NCBI GenBank assembly: GCA_046290465.1
Contig: JBKAGP010000001.1
Span: 6,530,046 to 6,594,045, forward strand
DNA: 64,000 nucleotides
Origin: Planctomycetota bacterium
Lineage (GTDB): Bacteria; Planctomycetota; UBA1135; UBA2386
Direction: 5' to 3'
The translations under genes and the position numbers were made by a program. Positions 42,579 to 62,937 of the stretch are shown here, one piece after another (within the stretch, counting starts at the first letter, position 1; every line of letters begins with the position of its first letter). The notes below the pieces were generated by a model. That model was not told the DNA's origin. It was given only the letters and a program-made list of their open reading frames with translations, and searched no databases.

Positions 42579-44225
42579 GTGAAGAAGATCCTCGTCGCGT
42601 TCGCGCTCACGCTGCCGCTGGTTGCCCAGACGCCGGACGGCCTGCCCGTGGTGCGCCACGCCATCCTCGCGCCGGGCTCCGGCATCGACCTCGACAGCGG
42701 CGTGGTGCTGCCGGGCGGCGACCACGGCCCGCTGCGCGCCGATGTCACGTTCGGCCGCGACGGGCTTGGCTTCTTCGTGCAGCCGCGTCGCGAAGGCATG
42801 CCGGCGCGGCCGGCGGACTGGTTCCCGGAGGGGGAGTGGTCGCAGCAGCGGCTGCGCATCCCGCGGCGCAGCGACGGGCAGGTGTGGACGTTCTTGCGCA
42901 CCGACCACGGCGTGGCGCGGCTGTCGATCGCGATCGTCGATCCCTACAGCACCGCGTCTGCGGCGGTGTCGTGGACGGTGGTGCCGCCCAAGGATCCGGT
43001 GTTCCTGGCCGCGCCGACCGACCTGCGGCTCCGCTGGCACGAAGGCAAGCTGCTGGTCGGCTGGGACGGCACGACGCCGCAGTTCCTGGTCGAGGTGGTC
43101 TCCGGTGAGCAGCGCAGCAAGCAGGTCTGCACGGTCAACGGTTGTGAGTTCGACGGTCTGGACCAGGACGCGGTGCACCTCGTGCGCGTTCGCGGCATGG
43201 ACGGCGGCGCGATCTCGGTGCCGGCCGAGGCCGTGCAGCACGGCCGGTCGCGGCCGCCGGTCTACGAGGTGACGCAATACCCCGACCGTTGGTATGACCA
43301 GGAGGGCGGGCTCGGGCTGTCGGTGGGCGCCGACAACGCGGAGAAGGCGGAGGTCGTGTTCTATCTGTACGGCGTGTTCGTGCCGGGGGGCGGCGTGCAG
43401 AAGCTCGGCAGCGGGCGCGAGACGTTCGTGTCGACCAAGGACCTGCCGACCAGCGGCTACCTGCCGAGCTACGGCCGCCTCGACGACCACGACGTGCACG
43501 CGGTGCGGCTGCCGGACGGCCGCCGCGCGCTGCTGTGGCTGGAGCCGGCCGATGGCGACGACGTGCGCGACGGCATGAACGTGCACAGCGTGTTCCTGCC
43601 GGACGGCCGCGGCCACTTGCTGGTGCCGCCGCAACCGACGGTGGCCAGCGACCAGCGGGTGGTGACCCTGACGTGGCCGCGCGTCGAGGGCGCCAAGGGC
43701 TACGAGGTGCGCGTCGGGGGCGACAAGCCGATCCTGACCGACCAGCTGACGGCGACGTTCGACGCGCTGCCGAAGGACCGCATGCATGCGTTCACGGTGC
43801 GGTCGCTGGGGGAGGATGGCGGTTGGTCGCTGGAGCGCAAGGTGTTCGGGCACACGTTCGGAACCGCGGCCGTGTTCCGGCGCGTCACGGTGCGGGCGCA
43901 GACCAACAGCGTCGACCTGAAGACCGGCAAGACGGTGAAGCAGGGCGACCTGTCGCTCGTCGGAGGTGCCGGTGGCGCCAGCTACCTGCAGTTCGGCACG
44001 CCCTACGGATCGTGCGCCAACGGCGGCCGTGCCTTCGGCGACTTCGACGGCCTGCAGCGCGGCAAGGCCGACCACTTCGGCAGCGACGACCGCGAGGACG
44101 ACTTCGAGCAGTTCTTCGTCTGGACCAAGGACGGCGGTTGCGCCTGCGTGCGCATCGTCGTGCGCGACTGGCCGGACACGGTGGTCGAGTACGTCTGGCT
44201 GCCGCCGAAGGACGGCGGGCGCTAG
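42579..44225 (+). CDS. Hypothetical secreted protein with fibronectin type III-like domains
   Basis: Signal ending LVA|Q; APTDL...VGWD...LDQDAVHLVRVRG and LTWPRVEGAKGYEV...FTVRS. Confidence 0.7.
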   Translation: MKKILVAFALTLPLVAQTPDGLPVVRHAILAPGSGIDLDSGVVLPGGDHGPLRADVTFGRDGLGFFVQPRREGMPARPADWFPEGEWSQQRLRIPRRSDGQVWTFLRTDHGVARLSIAIVDPYSTASAAVSWTVVPPKDPVFLAAPTDLRLRWHEGKLLVGWDGTTPQFLVEVVSGEQRSKQVCTVNGCEFDGLDQDAVHLVRVRGMDGGAISVPAEAVQHGRSRPPVYEVTQYPDRWYDQEGGLGLSVGADNAEKAEVVFYLYGVFVPGGGVQKLGSGRETFVSTKDLPTSGYLPSYGRLDDHDVHAVRLPDGRRALLWLEPADGDDVRDGMNVHSVFLPDGRGHLLVPPQPTVASDQRVVTLTWPRVEGAKGYEVRVGGDKPILTDQLTATFDALPKDRMHAFTVRSLGEDGGWSLERKVFGHTFGTAAVFRRVTVRAQTNSVDLKTGKTVKQGDLSLVGGAGGASYLQFGTPYGSCANGGRAFGDFDGLQRGKADHFGSDDREDDFEQFFVWTKDGGCACVRIVVRDWPDTVVEYVWLPPKDGGR

Positions 44226-44308
44226 GAGCGCGTCCATGTAGTGGACGCGCTGCCAACCGTGATCGCGGAAGCGGCGTGTACGCTTGCGGACGGGGCTTTG
44301 CCCGCTAG
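44222..44308 (+). repeat. Dispersed 87-bp palindromic element, copy 1 (MITE/REP-like)
   Basis: CTAG-GAGCGCGTCCATGTAGTGGACGCGCT...GGGGCTTTGCCCG-CTAG; near-identical to 57462-57547 and 61785-61871. Confidence 0.9.
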
Positions 44309-54217: not shown

Positions 54218-55509
54218 TCGGAGCGTTGTGGTCGTGCGTGCTGCTGGTCGGCATCGCGCCGTCGCAGTCGCCGTGCACGTGGCTGCATCTCGACGGCGCC
54301 GACGCGACCGCGATCGGCGTGCTGTTCCCGAGCGGCTTCGACGACGACCCGAAGGGCCGCTCGGGGCTGGCGGCGGTGGTCGCGGCGGCGCGGCTCGAAC
54401 AGGGCCGCCGCGCCGGCGGTGCGCTGCTGGCGAGCGGCGCGCAGGTCGGGGCCGACCACGCGATCGTGTTCGCGGTGGTCGGGCGCGACGATCACCGCAA
54501 CGCGGTCGCGTTCCTCGAGGCGCTGCGCGGCGACGGCGGCGACCTCGACGACGACACGCTGGCGCTGGCGATCGCGCGCACGGCGCTGCTCGCCGACGAC
54601 GCCGAGTACCTCTATCCGGGCGACGTCATGCGCACGCGCGCCCGCCGCCGCCTCGGGGCCGGCACGGTGCTGGCCCGGCCGCCGCGCGGGGTCGCCGACG
54701 AGTGCATCGCGCTGACGCCGGCGATCGTGCGCAAACGGCTCGCCGCCGAGACCCCGGTCCGGGTCGCCGCACTCGGGGTCGTCGACCAGCGCTGGATCGA
54801 AGCGATCGGCGGGTTGCCCTGGCCGCAGCAGCCGTGCGCGGTCGCCGCGCCCCGGGTCTGCCAGCCGCCGCGCCGCGTGCCCGACCGCACCGAGGACGTC
54901 AGCGCGCGTGCCGACTCGCCGTACGTCGCGGTGGCGTTCGCCGCACCGCCGCCCGCGCAGCGGCCGGCGTTCGCGATCGGCGTCGAGATCGCGCGCGCCC
55001 GCGCGTTCCGCCGCTTCGACCTGCGCGGCCGCGAACTGTTCGCGCGCGCGCCGTTCGTCAGCTGGTCGTGGCTGCACCAGGATCCGCTGCTGATGCTGTT
55101 CCGTCGCGGCGAGGACCAGGTGCAGCTGCTGCCCGGCGAGCGACCGGCGGCGACCGTCGACGACGAGGTCGAGGCGACCCGGCGCGAACTGCAGGCGCTG
55201 CTCGAGGACCTGCGCAAGCTGCCGCCGAGCCCGGCGGAAGTCGCCACCGCCCGGGCCGCGCTGCGTGGCCAGCTGGCGCTGCCGGGGCCGGGCGAGGCTG
55301 CGCCGTGGGCCAAGGAGCCGGCGACCCTGCCCGGCCGGCTGCAGGTGTTGTTGCTGCGCGAGTACCACGGCGTCGATGTCGCGAATCTCGACGGCATCAC
55401 CCCGGAGATGGTGGCGAAGTCCCTGATCGAGACGCTGCCGGAGCAGCGCGCCAGCTGGCACGCGATGGTGCCGCGGCGGCGCGACCGGCTCGGCTACCGG
55501 CGACGGTGA
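54205..55509 (+). CDS. Exported M16 peptidase-like protein, probably catalytically inactive
   Basis: Signal peptide; SGFDDDPKGRSGLAAVV matches the M16 pre-HxxEH segment but lacks His/Glu; SD AAGGAGG; overlaps the ABC gene. Confidence 0.6.
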   Translation: MRSLIGALWSCVLLVGIAPSQSPCTWLHLDGADATAIGVLFPSGFDDDPKGRSGLAAVVAAARLEQGRRAGGALLASGAQVGADHAIVFAVVGRDDHRNAVAFLEALRGDGGDLDDDTLALAIARTALLADDAEYLYPGDVMRTRARRRLGAGTVLARPPRGVADECIALTPAIVRKRLAAETPVRVAALGVVDQRWIEAIGGLPWPQQPCAVAAPRVCQPPRRVPDRTEDVSARADSPYVAVAFAAPPPAQRPAFAIGVEIARARAFRRFDLRGRELFARAPFVSWSWLHQDPLLMLFRRGEDQVQLLPGERPAATVDDEVEATRRELQALLEDLRKLPPSPAEVATARAALRGQLALPGPGEAAPWAKEPATLPGRLQVLLLREYHGVDVANLDGITPEMVAKSLIETLPEQRASWHAMVPRRRDRLGYRRR

Positions 55510-55580
55510 AGAACGGGCGGCTGGGTTGCCGATGGGGGTAGTGGAGACTCCGCACGACCAAGCTCCGCTGCAGCCAATCG

Positions 55581-57455
55581 ATGGGATTCATCAACGTCGC
55601 CGAGCGCACGATCAACGCCAAGCTCGTCTGCTATGGCGTTGGAGTAGGTGGCAAGACCACGAGCCTGCAGCAGGTGCACGGCATCTTCTGCCCGCGCAAC
55701 GAGGTGCAGCTGGTCTCAATCAACACCGAGGAGGAGTCGACGCTGCTGTTCGACTTCCTGCCGATCAACCTCGGCACCGTCGGCGGCTTCAAGATCCGCA
55801 TCCAGGGCTTCACCGTGCCCGGCCAGCCCAAGTACAAGCAGATGCGCAAGTACGTGCTGCAGGGGGCCGACGCGGTGGTGTTCGTCGTCGACAGCCAGCG
55901 CAGCCGTCTGGAGGAGAACGTCGAGTCGCTGCAGAGCATGCGCGAGCACCTGCGCGAGCAGCCGGGCACCTCCGAGGACATCCCGATCGTCGCGCAGTAC
56001 AACAAGCGCGACCTCGACGACATCCTGACCGAGCGCGAACTCGACCAGCACTTCTGCTTCCGCGACGACGTGACGTCGTTCCCGTCGGTCGCGACCGAGG
56101 GCCACGGCGTGTTCGAGGCGTTCGTCGAGGCGACCTGCGCGCTGGTCGAACGCAAGGTCGAGCTCTACGGGCTGACCGACGAGGAATGCGCGCCGAGCGA
56201 GGTCGCCGAGGGCGTGCGCCAGAAGCTGTGGGCGATCTGCGACGAGGTCCGCCGCGCGCGCGAGGTCGTGCCGGTCGACGAGCTGCCGCAGACGCGCCTG
56301 TTGCAGGGCGAGGATCGCCCGCAGCAGCCAGCGGACCCGGTGCCGGACGACGTGCTCGATCTGCCCGCCGACGACGGCGGCGACGACCTGGCGGAGACGG
56401 TCGAGCTGCGCGACATGGCGCCGGTGCGCGGGCCCGCCGACGAGGTCCAGCTCGACGACGGCGACGAGGAGTCGTTCGACTTCGGCTACGAGCTGCGCGA
56501 GAGCGCCGAGTCGGCGCGCGCGCCGGACGACGTGCAGAACGGCGACGAGGTGCTCAGCGACGAAGAACTCGACCTCGACCTCAGCGCCGGCGTCGTCGAC
56601 TTCGAGGAGGCGCCGGTCGAGGAGTCCGAACCGGAGCTGCTCGACAAGACCGTGCAGTCCAACCTCGAGCTCGCCGAGCGCTACGGCGAGCTGGACGAGA
56701 AGCGGCTGCAGCTCGAACGCAAGCTGCACGAGCTGGTCGACGTCGCGCAGTGCACCGTGCACGACCTCAACCGCCCGATCAGCGCGCTGCGGCTGATGCT
56801 GTCGACGCTCGACAAGGGCTACCTGGGCGAGCTCAGCGAACCACAGGGTCAGGCGATCGAGAACGGCCTGATGGCCGTGCACCAGATGGAACGGCTGGTG
56901 CGCGACCTGCTCGACAGCTCGCGCCTCGACCACGACGGCGTGCGCCTCGAGTTCACCGAGTGCGACCTGACGCTGCTGGTCGCCGACGTGCTGCGAACGC
57001 TGCGCTACGAGCTGGACGAGTACAGCCTGTTGGTGCGCGTCGAACCGCTGCCGGTGACCAGGGTCGACCAGTGGGCGCTGACCAAGGCGCTGATGAACCT
57101 GATCGGCAATGCGATCGCATACCGGTCCAGCGATCGCACGCCGCTGGTGCGCGTGTTCGCCGAGGACCGCGGCGAGCACTGGGCGCTGGCCGTCAGCGAC
57201 AACGGCATCGGGATTCCCGAGGCCGACCGCGAACGGCTGTTCCGTCGCTTCGAGCGCGGTTCCAACACGTCGGGCATCAGCGGCACGGGCCTCGGCCTGC
57301 ACATCGTCAAGGAGATCGTGCAGGGCCACGGCGGCACCGTCGCGTTCGACAGCGAGGTCGGCCACGGCACGACGTTCTGGCTCAACCTGCCCAAGCAGCC
57401 GGTGCTCGCACCACACTCGCCGATCAGCGACGTCGGCGAGCGCGTCGGGCTGTAG
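55581..57455 (+). CDS. MglA-like small GTPase fused to a histidine kinase (HisKA + HATPase_c)
   Basis: N-terminus: GVGVGGKTT, TLLFDFLP, TVPGQ, VFVVDSQ, NKRD. C-terminus: VHDLNRP (H394), NLIGNA, DNGIGI, LFRRF, GTGLGL. Confidence 0.92.
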   Translation: MGFINVAERTINAKLVCYGVGVGGKTTSLQQVHGIFCPRNEVQLVSINTEEESTLLFDFLPINLGTVGGFKIRIQGFTVPGQPKYKQMRKYVLQGADAVVFVVDSQRSRLEENVESLQSMREHLREQPGTSEDIPIVAQYNKRDLDDILTERELDQHFCFRDDVTSFPSVATEGHGVFEAFVEATCALVERKVELYGLTDEECAPSEVAEGVRQKLWAICDEVRRAREVVPVDELPQTRLLQGEDRPQQPADPVPDDVLDLPADDGGDDLAETVELRDMAPVRGPADEVQLDDGDEESFDFGYELRESAESARAPDDVQNGDEVLSDEELDLDLSAGVVDFEEAPVEESEPELLDKTVQSNLELAERYGELDEKRLQLERKLHELVDVAQCTVHDLNRPISALRLMLSTLDKGYLGELSEPQGQAIENGLMAVHQMERLVRDLLDSSRLDHDGVRLEFTECDLTLLVADVLRTLRYELDEYSLLVRVEPLPVTRVDQWALTKALMNLIGNAIAYRSSDRTPLVRVFAEDRGEHWALAVSDNGIGIPEADRERLFRRFERGSNTSGISGTGLGLHIVKEIVQGHGGTVAFDSEVGHGTTFWLNLPKQPVLAPHSPISDVGERVGL

Positions 57456-57461
57456 CCGGGG

Positions 57462-57547
57462 ATAGGAGCGCGTCCATGTAGTGGACGCGCTGCCAACCGT
57501 GATCGCGGAAGCGGCGTGTACGCGTGCGGACGGGGCTTTGCCCGTAG
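57462..57547 (+). repeat. Dispersed palindromic element, copy 2 (86 bp)
   Basis: ATAG-GAGCGCGTCCATGTAGTGGACGCGCT...GCTTTGCCCG-TAG. Confidence 0.9.
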
Positions 57548-57559
57548 CATGCGGGGGCG

Positions 57560-58165
57560 ATGAAGGCCCTCTCGTTGCTGTGTGCGTTGTCCATGGTCGG
57601 CTGCGCGACCGGTCCGCAGTTCACGTCCATCCTGGAGCCCGGCGCGTTCGCAGGCTGGCACACCGCGCCGGGCGGCACGTGGACCTGGCGCGGCGACGTG
57701 CTGGTCGGCACCAGCCCGAAGAGCGAGCGCCGCCACGGCATCCTGCTCAGCGATGCGCGTTACTCGGACTTCGAGGTCCAGCTCGAGTTCCGCGTGCTCT
57801 CGGGCGACAGCGGCTGCTACTTCCGCGTCGACGAGAAGGGCGGCACGGTCGCGGTGAACGGCTTCCAGTCGGAGGTCGACACCACGCTGGAGACCGGCGG
57901 CCTCTACGAGACCGGCGGCCGCGCGTGGGTCGTCAAGCCGGATCCGCAGCGCATGCGCGAGGTCTACCAGCCCGGCGAGTGGACCTCGCTGCGGATCCGC
58001 GCGGTGGGTCGGGACGTCGACGTCTACGTCAACGGCTACCGGACGGCGTCGCTGCGAGACGATCCCGGCCGCACCGAGGGCCACCTCGGCCTGCAGCTGC
58101 ACGGCGGCCAGGACATGCACGTCGAGTTCCGCAACCTGCAGCTGCTCGACCTGAGCACGCGGTAG
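57560..58165 (+). CDS. DUF1080 (3-keto-disaccharide hydrolase family) lipoprotein
   Basis: Lipobox MVGC; YSDFEVQLEF, DSG, TGGLY, GEW, VNG, GHLGLQLHG, FRNL. Confidence 0.88.
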   Translation: MKALSLLCALSMVGCATGPQFTSILEPGAFAGWHTAPGGTWTWRGDVLVGTSPKSERRHGILLSDARYSDFEVQLEFRVLSGDSGCYFRVDEKGGTVAVNGFQSEVDTTLETGGLYETGGRAWVVKPDPQRMREVYQPGEWTSLRIRAVGRDVDVYVNGYRTASLRDDPGRTEGHLGLQLHGGQDMHVEFRNLQLLDLSTR

Positions 58166-59595: not shown

Positions 59596-61788
59596 ATGCA
59601 CGGCAGACACGCCGTTGCCGCGGCCCTCAAGGTCGCGGTCGTCAGTTCCGTTCTGTACTCGTCGCTCGCAGCGCAGGGCACCTACGCCGAACACACCTAC
59701 GGCGGCTTCGTCAATGCGGTGTGGCTCGAGCGGATCCCGCTGATCAGCGGCGATCCCGACGGCTTCCGCGTCTGGACCGCCGAGGACGGCAGCCGGATCC
59801 GCTTCTACGACTCGGTGACCGACACCACGACCCAGATGAACGTGCTGTCGACGTCGCCGCAGACGCTGCACGACATCTACCTGGACCAGTACCCGGGCAC
59901 CGGCGTCGAGGCGCTGTTCGGCGTCGCGGTCGGCACCGGCGGCGAGGCCGTCTGGTGGGACAGCCTCGGCCACACCAACTGGAAGCCGTTCACGACGCCG
60001 CCGGCACCCGGCAAGGAGCTGTGGGCGTGCGCGGTCGAACACGAGGCGACCGGCACCACCATCTGGGTCAGCGGCGAGGACCACCTGCTGAAGATCTCGC
60101 AGGACCAGGGCGCCACCTGGACCGATGCGCTGTGGACCACCAGCCCGGCGCCGAACGCCGCGCTGACCTCGCTCGACTTCGCCGACTGGTCGCTTGCCGG
60201 CACCAACGGCATCGTCGGCACCGATTCGGGCGAACTGTTCTTCACGACCGACGGCGTCACCTGGACCGCCGGCACGCTCAACGGCCTGCCGTCGCCGGCG
60301 TCGCCGCTGGTCTTCTGGGACATCGACTTCCGTCCGGGCTCGACCACCGAGGCGATCGCCGTCGGCGGCCGCGTCGAGGGCGGCGGCGAGGGCTTCGCCT
60401 GGCGCACGACCGACGGCGGCCAGACCTGGAACCGCGTGCTGACCCAGCTCGACGCGGTCGGCTACACGCGCGTGCCGCAGACGGCGGTGCAGCCGGGCCA
60501 CCCGTGCACCAGCGTGCCGGGCCTGGTGCTCGGCCAGTACACCTACAACGCCTACGCGACGCTCTACGGCGTGCACATGCGGCAGAACGGCCAGGCGCTG
60601 ATCGTCGGCTACGGCAGCCAGACGTGGCGCTACCTGCCCAACAAGGGCTACACGGTGGACGCGTCGGACACCGCGTCGTTCTCGACCGGGCCGCTGTGGG
60701 GCGCGCACGGCGACGGCCAGCAGCAGATCTGGCTGTCCGGCCAGTTCGGCACCCTGCGCCGCACCAGTGACGGCGGCAACACGTTCGAGTCGATGTCGCC
60801 GAACAACTCGTCGCGGTTCCGTTCGCTGGCGTTTCCGACCAAGGACACCGGCTACGTCGTCGGCCAGAGCATGCGCATCCAGAAGACGACCGACGCCGGC
60901 CAGACCTGGACCGAGCAGCTCGCCTATAAGAGCGGCGTCAACCTCGGCCCCGGCATCGAGTCGATCGCGGCCTACGACGTCGACCACGTGGTCGCGATCG
61001 CCAACGGCTTCAACGGTTCTGACCCGGTCGCGTTCGTGACCGCCGACGGTGGCGCGACCTGCTGGACCGAGGTCGACCTGACCCAGGTCGTCGACCAGTC
61101 GCAGGGCGGCGTGGCGCTGATGGACGTCGCCTTCGGCGACCTCGACGGGGTCACCGGCCTGCCGATCTTCTACGTCTCGACCAGCACGACGTCTGCGTGG
61201 AGCGGCCTGATGCGCTCGGTCGACGGCGGCCTGACCTGGACCGAGACCCCGACGCCCGCCGGCACCGACCAGTTCAGCTGGCACGGGGTCGCCGCGCTCG
61301 GCACGACCGCGGTGGTGCTGGTGGGGCACAACGAGACGGCCAACGAGATGGCCGCCTACGTGTCGCTCGACGCCGACAACCCGACGCCGACCTGGACGAG
61401 CCTGTTCCAGAACGCGCCGAACGGCCGCCTGTTCGGCGTCGCGGTCAACGGCGCGACGATGATCGCCGTCGGCACCGGCGGCAGCGTCTACGAGTACAGC
61501 GGCGGCCTGCTGGTGCCGGCGCAGGGCAGCGTCGGCGTCACCAACGCGACGCTGCGTCGCGCTCGGCTCGGCTTCGACGGCCTGATCATCTGGGCCTACG
61601 TCTCGGGTGACGACGGCACGCTGATGCGCAGCGCGCTGACGACCAACCAGTGGGACGTGCTGCACCCGGGTACGACCGACGACATCCTCGGCCTCGACCT
61701 GCGCCTCGACAACGCCAACAACATGGACGCGTGGCTCACCGGTCGCAGCCCGCGCTGGGGCGACAGCGCCGTCATCCACATGCGCTAG
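59596..61788 (+). CDS. Secreted BNR/Asp-box (YCF48-like) beta-propeller protein
   Basis: SD AAGGAG; signal ending LAA|Q; repeats SQDQGATW, TTDGGQTW, TSDGGNTF, TTDAGQTW, SVDGGLTW. Confidence 0.82.
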   Translation: MHGRHAVAAALKVAVVSSVLYSSLAAQGTYAEHTYGGFVNAVWLERIPLISGDPDGFRVWTAEDGSRIRFYDSVTDTTTQMNVLSTSPQTLHDIYLDQYPGTGVEALFGVAVGTGGEAVWWDSLGHTNWKPFTTPPAPGKELWACAVEHEATGTTIWVSGEDHLLKISQDQGATWTDALWTTSPAPNAALTSLDFADWSLAGTNGIVGTDSGELFFTTDGVTWTAGTLNGLPSPASPLVFWDIDFRPGSTTEAIAVGGRVEGGGEGFAWRTTDGGQTWNRVLTQLDAVGYTRVPQTAVQPGHPCTSVPGLVLGQYTYNAYATLYGVHMRQNGQALIVGYGSQTWRYLPNKGYTVDASDTASFSTGPLWGAHGDGQQQIWLSGQFGTLRRTSDGGNTFESMSPNNSSRFRSLAFPTKDTGYVVGQSMRIQKTTDAGQTWTEQLAYKSGVNLGPGIESIAAYDVDHVVAIANGFNGSDPVAFVTADGGATCWTEVDLTQVVDQSQGGVALMDVAFGDLDGVTGLPIFYVSTSTTSAWSGLMRSVDGGLTWTETPTPAGTDQFSWHGVAALGTTAVVLVGHNETANEMAAYVSLDADNPTPTWTSLFQNAPNGRLFGVAVNGATMIAVGTGGSVYEYSGGLLVPAQGSVGVTNATLRRARLGFDGLIIWAYVSGDDGTLMRSALTTNQWDVLHPGTTDDILGLDLRLDNANNMDAWLTGRSPRWGDSAVIHMR

Positions 61789-61871
61789 GAGCGCGTCCAT
61801 GTAGTGGACGCGCTGCCAACCGTGATCGCAGAAGCGGCGTGTACGCGTGCGGACGGGGCTTTGCCCGCTAG
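61785..61871 (+). repeat. Dispersed 87-bp palindromic element, copy 3
   Basis: CTAG...CTAG-flanked; two substitutions relative to copy 1. Confidence 0.9.
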
Positions 61872-61979: not shown

Positions 61980-62055
61980 TGGTACCTCCGCTAGGGCTCG
62001 AACCTAGGACCCGCGGATTAAGAATCCGCTGCTCTACCAACTGAGCTACGGAGGC
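61980..62055 (-). tRNA. tRNA-Lys (CTT)
   Basis: GCCTCCGTAGCTCAGTTGGTAGAGCA-GCGGA-TTCTTAA-TCCGC-GGGTCCTAGGTTCGAGCCCTAGCGGAGGTACCA; encoded CCA. Confidence 0.96.
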
Positions 62056-62199: not shown

Positions 62200-62277
62200 G
62201 GTGGCTATCGCTCAGTCGGTTAGAGCACCAGATTGTGGTTCTGGGGGTCGCGGGTTCGAATCCCGTTAGCCACCCCA
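62200..62277 (+). tRNA. tRNA-His (GTG) with genomically encoded G-1
   Basis: G-GTGGCTA...CCAGA-TTGTGGT-TCTGG...GGTTCGAATCCC..TAGCCAC-C-CCA. Confidence 0.96.
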
Positions 62278-62494: not shown

Positions 62495-62863
62495 CTACAG
62501 CGTGCGCAGGAAGCGCAGCAGCGCTCCCTGGCCGGCACGTGAGCCGGGGTGGAAGCCGCCCAGGCGCGCCGTCCGGCTGGTGCGGGCATCCTGCAGTTCG
62601 GGGCCGAACGTCGCCATCGCCAGCGCCGGATCGACGGTCCCCAGCGACGTCGCCACCTTTTGCGCGAGACCCGGCCGCACGTCCGGACCGACCACCAGGC
62701 AGTCGTGGCCGCCGGCGCCGAAGAACGTCGTGCGCGCCGCCTGCAGGTCGCCCGCGGTATCGACCTGGAGGCCCTCCTCGCGCAGGGTCTGCAGCAGCGG
62801 ACCCATCGGCTTGGGGTCGCCAAGCAGCAGCAGGACTCCGAGGTTGCGGTCGTCGTTCGGCAA
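62495..62863 (-). CDS. Small pseudo-receiver-like (CheY-fold) protein
   Basis: VLLLLGD...LLQTLREEGLQVDTAGDLQAA...HDCLVVGPD pattern; TTG start uncertain. Confidence 0.5.
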   Translation of the reverse strand: MPNDDRNLGVLLLLGDPKPMGPLLQTLREEGLQVDTAGDLQAARTTFFGAGGHDCLVVGPDVRPGLAQKVATSLGTVDPALAMATFGPELQDARTSRTARLGGFHPGSRAGQGALLRFLRTL

Positions 62864-62937
62864 GACTCCGGTTTCTTCGTCCCTCGGCGCGGGGAAGGTC
62901 AAGCCCGCTTCGAGGCATGGTCGATGGCTTCCTTGCC

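Follow-up and report, generated by a model that had tools for sequence, protein, structure and literature searches.

A conserved, apparently undescribed fusion of an MglA-type G domain to a histidine kinase in Planctomycetota

We identified a gene in a planctomycete genome (a single 6.59-Mb contig, 70% GC) that encodes an MglA-like G domain and a histidine kinase on one polypeptide of 624 amino acids. The gene (P0001) occupies positions 55581..57455 (+ strand) of the window, the 64,000-nucleotide stretch of DNA that was analysed, and it was characterised by Pfam, PDB matches and a survey of homologous loci. The fusion is real and conserved, and it is apparently an undescribed GTPase-histidine kinase architecture. 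We tentatively suggest, with somewhat less than even confidence, that it represents a cross-phylum class of G-protein-gated kinases in which an MglA G domain and a conserved helix (the "SN" helix) would turn the state of a polarity switch directly into a His-Asp phosphorelay. The version found in this lineage would be a non-hydrolysing reader of MglB, with the GAP as ligand of the kinase, wiring polarity to type IV pilus control.

The open reading frame is present as the original prediction described it, and the motifs it had singled out are in place (G19-x4-GKTT, T54-LLFDFLP, T78-VPGQ82, N141-KRD and H394 in VHDLNRP). PDB and Pfam matches place a Group 1 MglA G domain, a HisKA domain and a HATPase_c domain on this one frame, in agreement with the proposed fusion of a GTPase to a complete kinase. 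No transmembrane segment is encoded, also as anticipated (top 19-residue hydropathy of 1.14). An assembly chimera, or chance read-through of two genes, would be compatible with the variable, low-complexity linker and with one frameshifted locus (L112). The original prediction had called for a look at whether homologs are split into two genes and whether the linker has independent support. We kept 80 of the 113 genome loci found, and BLAST recovered a single ORF in 72 of the 80; inspection of the other eight added three single ORFs, four that are ended by a contig edge, and L112. The fusion is thus one ORF in 75/80 loci and two genes in none. In L112 the homolog is spread over three frames (419-2285), reflecting either an assembly error or a pseudogene. 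Both kinase domains are present in 118 of the 120 best protein matches, and a 19.8-kb contig from a separate study covers positions 55300-57458, spanning the gene with 20 substitutions and zero gaps. Because this independent contig is gap-free and no locus is split, we rule out an artefactual joining, which would be exceedingly improbable. The Cys at codon 17 (window 55630), where 99% of homologs and also three other data sets have Tyr, is either a strain variant or a base error.

Selection has acted unevenly along the protein. Against ten close homologs, dN/dS is 0.12 for the G domain, 0.18 for the DHp domain, 0.23 for the SN helix and coil, 0.28 for the ATP-binding domain and 0.57 for the linker, which makes the G domain the most constrained part of the fusion. 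An AlphaFold model from 120 sequences has a mean pLDDT of 81 and a pTM of 0.51; the rise from the pTM of 0.39 obtained with 21 sequences was not counted as evidence of docking. The model superimposes on MglA (6h17) with Z 27.7 and an rmsd of 2.1 Å over 192 residues, and on kinase cores with Z of about 24. Mean-field covariation over 328 sequences (effective number 131) gave top pairs that look like noise even inside domains, and no contact between G domain and kinase was inferred from it. One RNA run over the gene yielded a 202-base piece at depth 2.8, which is no evidence of expression.

The architecture is already in databases without being recognised there. Some members are auto-annotated as [quoted passage not shown], no NCBIfam fusion model passed its cut-off among the matches listed (25 of 80), and an ESM Atlas feature search with the fusion returned kinase clusters only. 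The original prediction knew of no characterised example, and we likewise found no description of a GTPase-histidine kinase fusion in a literature search judged mostly by titles and abstract openings, with few subscription journals and no supplements. The MglA family survey of PMC4316618 left out proteins longer than 240 aa, and its tables may list long MglA-like proteins excluded from its analysis.

The G domain occupies residues 1-190 (55581..56150, +) and carries G19-x4-GKT, T54, D58, TVPGQ82 and NKRD. It had been described as co-linear with MglA over about 80 residues; that stretch holds, and the match in fact runs over residues 1-188 (PDB MglA, E 5e-45). A helical extension follows at residues 191-232 (56151..56276, +), within a region modelled as helices 177-196 and 205-227 at high pLDDT; it is also found in stand-alone relatives of 220-224 aa (the L178, L181 and L182 sequences). 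Residues K25, T26, T54, D58, Q82 and N141-K-x-D144, the predicted Mg and GTP site, are invariant in the lineage.

The site that corresponds to the intrinsic arginine finger of MglA is a serine in the fusion (S53, codon 55737..55739, +, by alignment to MglA). In MglA, the R53A substitution abolishes both intrinsic and GAP-stimulated hydrolysis and leaves MglB binding at wild-type affinity (PMC3199381). An arginine finger beside the G2 Thr is described as conserved in all Group 1 MglAs surveyed, and MglA groups 2-5 are described as also being without it (PMC4316618); one of these arginine-less groups is reported to have a GAP (PMC12236503). All 71 members of the lineage of the fusion have S, A or Q at this position and none has R (0/71), a natural A53 occurring in 27%; the residue is R in 141/141 canonical MglAs (21/21 canonical paralogs and 120/120 long MglAs). 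One of our two genome-scan patterns excluded R53; the sets gathered without that pattern agree, at 21/21 and 120/120. Further positions have changed as well: P20 is replaced by V, C or I, family-invariant sites in switch II and beta-3 depart from canonical MglA, and K84, beside Q82, is family-specific and 99% conserved. The beta-2 hydrophobic strip, which in MglA forms the interface with MglB through L55, F56, F57 and F59 (PMC3199381), retains L55, F57 and F59, with F56 changed to L.

Measured against Group 1 MglA, the fusion has the TVPGQ G3 motif and a homologous G domain, and it departs from that group in the absent arginine finger and in its length (624 aa versus a single domain of 150-240 aa). 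The roadblock genes of the genome lie 4.4 Mb away along the contig, or about 2.2 Mb should it form a circle, a distance that is not decisive against Group 1 membership because orphan MglAs exist. By its sequence, the domain would work like an MglA domain yet falls outside Group 1 MglA membership. The original prediction had called the kinase GTP-gated. In the sense of a cycling switch, this suits the wider family, in which R53 is mostly retained (139 of the 144 GAF-bearing kinases collected), but a cycling MglA-type switch is doubtful in the present lineage because the arginine finger is gone in all 71 members and R53A cripples hydrolysis by MglA.

Between the G domain and the kinase lies a variable linker (residues 241-348; 56301..56624, +) of 50-173 aa across 70 homologs. 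The very acidic composition first noted for it was borne out (36% D/E and 4% K/R over residues 241-355), and it is predicted to be disordered, with pLDDT below 50 over residues 237-325. The SN helix (LLxxAVxSNxELA) and a coiled coil follow at residues 349-392 (56625..56756, +) and run on into the first DHp helix, so that AlphaFold predicts an unbroken helix over residues 351-411, from the SN motif to His394. An HMM of the SN helix matched 328/344 proteins with G domain and kinase (it was built from the family and is circular for these positives), 0/120 long MglAs, and 2/94 kinases without a G domain, both apparently truncated members.

The DHp domain (56757..56945, +; PF00512, residues 393-451) presents the phospho-acceptor H394 in HDLNRP, and H394, D395 and P399 are invariant in 70/70 homologs. 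The HATPase_c domain (57066..57398, +; PF02518, E 4.5e-27, residues 496-606) likewise passes the Pfam cut-off, and its N, G1, F and G2 boxes are as intact as first read: N506, N510, D540, G542, G544, F557, G568, G570 and G572 are invariant in 70/70 genome-locus homologs. With a DHp histidine and the HATPase_c boxes, the protein is by sequence a class I HisKA kinase. Thr or Asn at position His+4 of HisKA domains is linked to phosphatase activity; this residue is R or K in 68/70 homologs, as in HDL[RQ]EP/HDLKAP-type kinases, and is not a defect specific to the fusion.

Named homologous records come nearly all from Planctomycetota MAGs, one of them labelled CL500-15. Scoring the fusion-type G domain at a minimum of 61% identity in 151 genomes, we found it in this genome, in 18/19 others of its own family and in 4/4 of a second family (23 carriers), and in none of 127 genomes from six other families. 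The fusion also occurs in a third family (2/2), and three family genomes, 81-85% complete, are without it. Canonical MglA is present in 23/23 carriers. One family without MglA (0/32) is also without the fusion, as are four MglA-bearing families of the order.

When 1.84 billion representatives were searched with a profile, many distant proteins that begin with a G domain came up. Pfam resolved 48 family proteins mostly as G-GAF-kinase, with G-PAS-kinase forms, GAF-less forms and one that includes a receiver. A profile of 36 members matched 622 proteins at E 1e-40 or better, with 120 among the matches listed. Named members come from Planctomycetota and Acidobacteriota (Thermoanaerobaculia, Holophagaceae) MAGs. 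The helix LLxxAVxSNxELA after the linker is common to all. On these sequence features we place the fusion in a wider family of Planctomycetota and Acidobacteriota proteins that combine a G domain, an SN helix, an optional GAF or PAS domain, and a kinase; the GAF domain of its relatives is absent in the present lineage. In other planctomycete families the gene adjoins dnaA and is arranged head-to-head with iscS; it takes the form of G-GAF-kinase, of G-GAF or of the G domain alone. Six genes of this kind are kinase-less and keep R53: L178 5220-5894, L181 5661-6323 and L182 5514-6176 encode G alone, and L179, L180 and L183 encode G-linker-GAF. They fall in the same G-domain clade as the fusion and lie beside iscS, dnaA and bacillithiol genes. 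A link to the replication origin was rejected for this genome, being true of relatives only; here dnaA lies at 4.20 Mb and the iscS/dnaA slot is empty. Other MglA fusions (P0203, P0210, P0239 and P0128) join the domain to a pentapeptide repeat and ion channel, a Ser/Thr kinase, or a roadblock domain, and one of the pentapeptide repeat and ion channel type is named Ca. Uabimicrobium amorphum.

In quick trees the lineage (support 100) and canonical MglA (99) form separate groups, and descent as a recent duplicate of the genome's own mglA was rejected (p 7e-6 by the AU test on a quick tree with 56 of the 132 rows). The state at position 53 changed at least three times on the quick trees, and no R-less group in either G-domain tree is without a kinase. 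Kinase cores are discordant with the G domain: the core of this lineage groups with HDL[RQ]EP/HDLKAP kinases, the majority of family cores with HELxTP kinases, and still other cores with HEVNNP kinases. A single clade of this lineage's core and the majority's was rejected at p 0.014, for a group named after the tree was seen and under no mixture model. The kinase core was thus probably swapped at least twice in the family, the G domain and SN helix recurring ahead of HDLxxP, HELxTP and HEVNNP core types. Three second-copy relatives without R53 are directly followed by receiver genes (L170 and L176 over the cut-off, L177 weak), and two relatives (L175, L176) have far more degenerate G domains.

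Upstream of the fusion we found a bipartite promoter-like motif, TGAAG-N16-GCCGAT (55507..55533, +), that is sigma-28/FliA-like and conserved upstream of homologs. FliA sites of E. coli are reported to have TAAAG or TCAAG at -35, GCCGAT at -10 and a 14-nt spacer (PMC4183435); the elements correspond, with a spacer here 1-2 nt longer (15-16 nt). The strict motif precedes 46/77 homologous genes and arose in 0 of 200 shuffles; a broadened pattern, drawn up after the first results on the motif had been seen, finds it at 53/77 fusion loci. Under either pattern the spacers are 15-16 nt only. It also precedes canonical mglA (the mglA-mglB operon) at 11/13 loci in fusion-bearing families and at 0/8 in other families, and control genes are without it (ridA 0/33, coaD 0/12). 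A scan for sigma-70 promoters and terminators gave none.

Across this genome, non-coding motif sites number 23 at spacer 16, 16 at spacer 15 and 0-2 at other spacers (by rough gene calls). They precede flagellin, fliD, the flgB operon, an HPt gene (C1:4250580) and several regulators, including REC-CheX, REC-sigma54 and REC-LuxR genes. In the non-flagellated genome G041, 23 of 26 motif sites have a homolog in this genome and 12/23 carry the motif in both (10/21 when mglA and the fusion are left out, with a base rate of 1.7%). The genes with the motif in both are mglA, the fusion, PilT, a PilQ-like secretin, a MshEN-PilT-like ATPase, a PAS kinase and unknowns. Each genome has three FliA/WhiG-type sigma factors, including four family genomes without a flagellin match. 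A role confined to flagella is unlikely: fliD occurs in 29/41 family genomes, and the fusion-bearing G041, G109 and G151 have no flagellin match. This distribution suggests that the fusion is co-regulated with mglAB and pilus genes. The PAS histidine kinase (C1:5559710-5561044), with the motif in two genomes, has a core that groups with HELxTP wider-family cores on a long branch. A second motif copy in the window (62899-62925, +) lies ahead of an exported-looking protein at the window end and is conserved in G041.

As the original prediction observed, the window holds no roadblock or MglB gene; its proposed search of the genome succeeded, with mglB (C1:2176126-2176644) and both of the genome's Robl_LC7 matches at C1:2.18 Mb. 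The canonical cluster there (L023 8127-14484, -; C1:2.176-2.182 Mb) encodes a DUF4388-TPR-PQQ protein, a TPR protein, a second roadblock protein, MglA and MglB. This MglA has R53, a low-complexity tail and a C-terminal hydrophobic stretch, and is probably membrane-anchored. The tail occurs in 20/21 loci of the class, the remaining one being cut.

Nor does the window hold a canonical response regulator, again as first observed, the nearest of the genome's 91 Pfam receiver matches lying 95 kb from the fusion gene. No cognate receiver was found among the conserved neighbours, which are comEC, coaD, ridA, an ABC ATPase and tRNAs, and the orphan REC-CheX gene with the motif was rejected as cognate (3/11 family genomes, 0/89 others). 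From its surroundings we class the fusion as an orphan kinase. A receiver-like gene without the phospho-Asp (62495..62866, -; 123 aa; 3a0r, E 0.006; hhalign 76%, E 2e-5; Gly/Ala opposite the Asp) is present in 12/12 family genomes and, with this query, in 0/89 others, and in 29/81 loci it is no more than about 6 kb from the fusion; it is a possible partner. Its Atlas neighbours are nameless Planctomycetota and Acidobacteriota clusters, one of them 14% Response_reg. Gene content between the fusion and the tRNAs differs from relative to relative. ARAGORN found tRNA-Lys and tRNA-His (window 61980-62055, 62201-62277) and left a tRNA-like stretch (58036-58110) uncalled. Directly after the fusion stop is an 82-bp hairpin-forming repeat (57463-57544; also 44223-44304 and 61786-61867), REP- or MITE-like, with 151 genome copies of at least 70 bp; where the copy at 57463-57544 stands here, 165 different letters are found in three other data sets.

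The reading we favour, at close to but short of an even chance, is that of a soluble orphan kinase whose G domain, GTP-bound and docked on MglB or the second roadblock protein, would place or gate the kinase in pilus motility. The G domain would bind GTP and hydrolyse it poorly, like MglA R53A, and would then expose the beta-2 strip (L55, F57, F59), through which MglB or a roadblock protein from the separate mglAB operon could bind as a long-lived, non-turnover partner. Binding would place the kinase at the site of MglB and/or shift the G domain on the SN helix, and since that helix is continuous into His394, such a shift may switch autophosphorylation. The phosphoryl group would pass to an unlinked receiver that governs type IV pilus motility or a cell-stage programme. 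In favour of this reading are the loss of R53 in all 71 members while the binding residues are invariant, the wild-type MglB affinity of R53A MglA, the presence of canonical MglA in all 23 carriers and the absence of the fusion from the MglA-less family, the promoter motif common to mglA, PilT and the PilQ-like secretin, the G domain and SN helix that precede different kinase cores in the manner of a portable input module, and the three relatives directly followed by receiver genes. Against it, the covariation signal was noise, a long linker of variable length and predicted disorder separates G domain and kinase, and the surface that would face MglB has diverged (F56 to L, with switch II and beta-3 changed). 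K84 or a partner could restore hydrolysis, the MglAB co-occurrence is among kin, with the fusion missing from four MglA-bearing families of the order, the promoter pattern was broadened after first results, and the search for a cognate receiver found none. The original proposal of a G domain that serves as input or localisation domain, coupled to polarity, thus gains from the conserved unsplit fusion, the constrained G domain, the mglB gene in the genome and the motif shared with mglAB and pilus genes; as a cycling switch it stays doubtful.

Three other readings share part of this evidence. Invariant binding residues beside a lost catalytic arginine would also suit a metabolic sensor, in which a hydrolysis-poor G domain follows the cellular pool of GTP/GDP (or ppGpp) and controls the kinase with no part played by MglB. 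In this lineage without GAF the G domain is the only recognisable input, sensing of the GTP pool upstream of a signalling enzyme has been proposed for RdcA-DgcE (PMC6510439), and an affinity for GTP like that of MglA, estimated at about 100-fold below that for GDP (PMC3199381), could yield a response to the ratio. Pool sensing by itself explains neither the promoter common to mglAB and pilus genes nor the retained beta-2 strip, and we consider it unlikely. The invariant Q82 and the 99% conserved K84 leave room for a G domain that still cycles, through K84 or a partner arginine, as an output or independent switch, with the kinase as tethered cargo or as regulator of the GTPase in the manner of conservons, whose models run from kinase to GTPase; the slot beside iscS/dnaA elsewhere holds G-only or G-GAF genes, which implies that the G domain can work alone. 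Yet the six kinase-less genes keep R53 and every R-less group has a kinase. A position at the N-terminus, ahead of a coiled coil, is moreover the usual input position in histidine kinases, and we hold continued cycling to be improbable. Finally, the loss of R53, the replacement of P20, the altered switch II and the more degenerate G domains of L175 and L176 could be those of a pseudo-GTPase scaffold, permanently nucleotide-bound and serving folding, dimerisation or fixed anchoring, with no switching. With T54 and Q82 invariant in 71/71 and the lowest dN/dS of the protein in this domain, we regard such a scaffold as quite improbable.

Such a GTPase-kinase would add a new type of input domain to histidine kinases, and it would be a sign that uncultured Planctomycetota and Acidobacteriota use MglAB-based polarity and pilus motility. 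Where bacterial Ras-like GTPases are known to reach two-component systems, they do so only via separate proteins, the direction of the conservon signal being at the stage of proposals; a soluble GTPase-kinase in one chain makes the coupling testable in vitro, and family members that have or lack R53, GAF or kinase offer natural controls.

Among known systems, Roco proteins such as LRRK2 also carry a Ras-like G domain and a kinase in one polypeptide, there as a Roc-COR tandem with a Ser/Thr kinase. The fusion differs in pairing an MglA domain with a His kinase, and COR and LRR are absent from the three Pfam matches of the whole protein. In Group 1 Rup loci, too, a small GTPase goes with a c-di-GMP enzyme or with a histidine kinase (PMC4316618), but in separate genes and with another GTPase family in which the catalytic Gln, not the Arg, is missing. 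RdcA/RdcB-DgcE of E. coli resembles the fusion in that a GTPase is the direct input to a signalling enzyme and the GTP pool is the proposed signal (PMC6510439); there a dynamin-like GTPase acts in trans, hydrolysis is needed and the output is a diguanylate cyclase.

Conservons (CvnA-D, Mfp) come closer, combining a histidine kinase and an MglA-family GTPase without the intrinsic arginine, with no adjacent response regulator. They are described as four separate genes with a Group 2 GTPase (GTPGQ, Thr for Arg) and a membrane kinase proposed upstream of the GTPase. The fusion is instead one chain with a Group 1 G domain and a soluble HisKA kinase; its locus has no cvnA-D operon and no roadblock or CvnC neighbour, and its S/A/Q with TVPGQ sets it apart from the Thr and GTPGQ of MglA Groups 2-5 and CvnD. 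The nearest likeness of the G domain itself is to Group 1 MglA/MglB of Myxococcus xanthus and Thermus thermophilus, with which it shares the fold (Z 27.7), the G1-G4 motifs, TVPGQ, T54/D58/Q82, most of the beta-2 hydrophobic strip and a regulon tie to type IV pili. Unlike those proteins, the fusion is without R53, lies away from mglB, forms a clade separate from the genome's own MglA (AU p 7e-6 on the quick tree) and is joined to a kinase.
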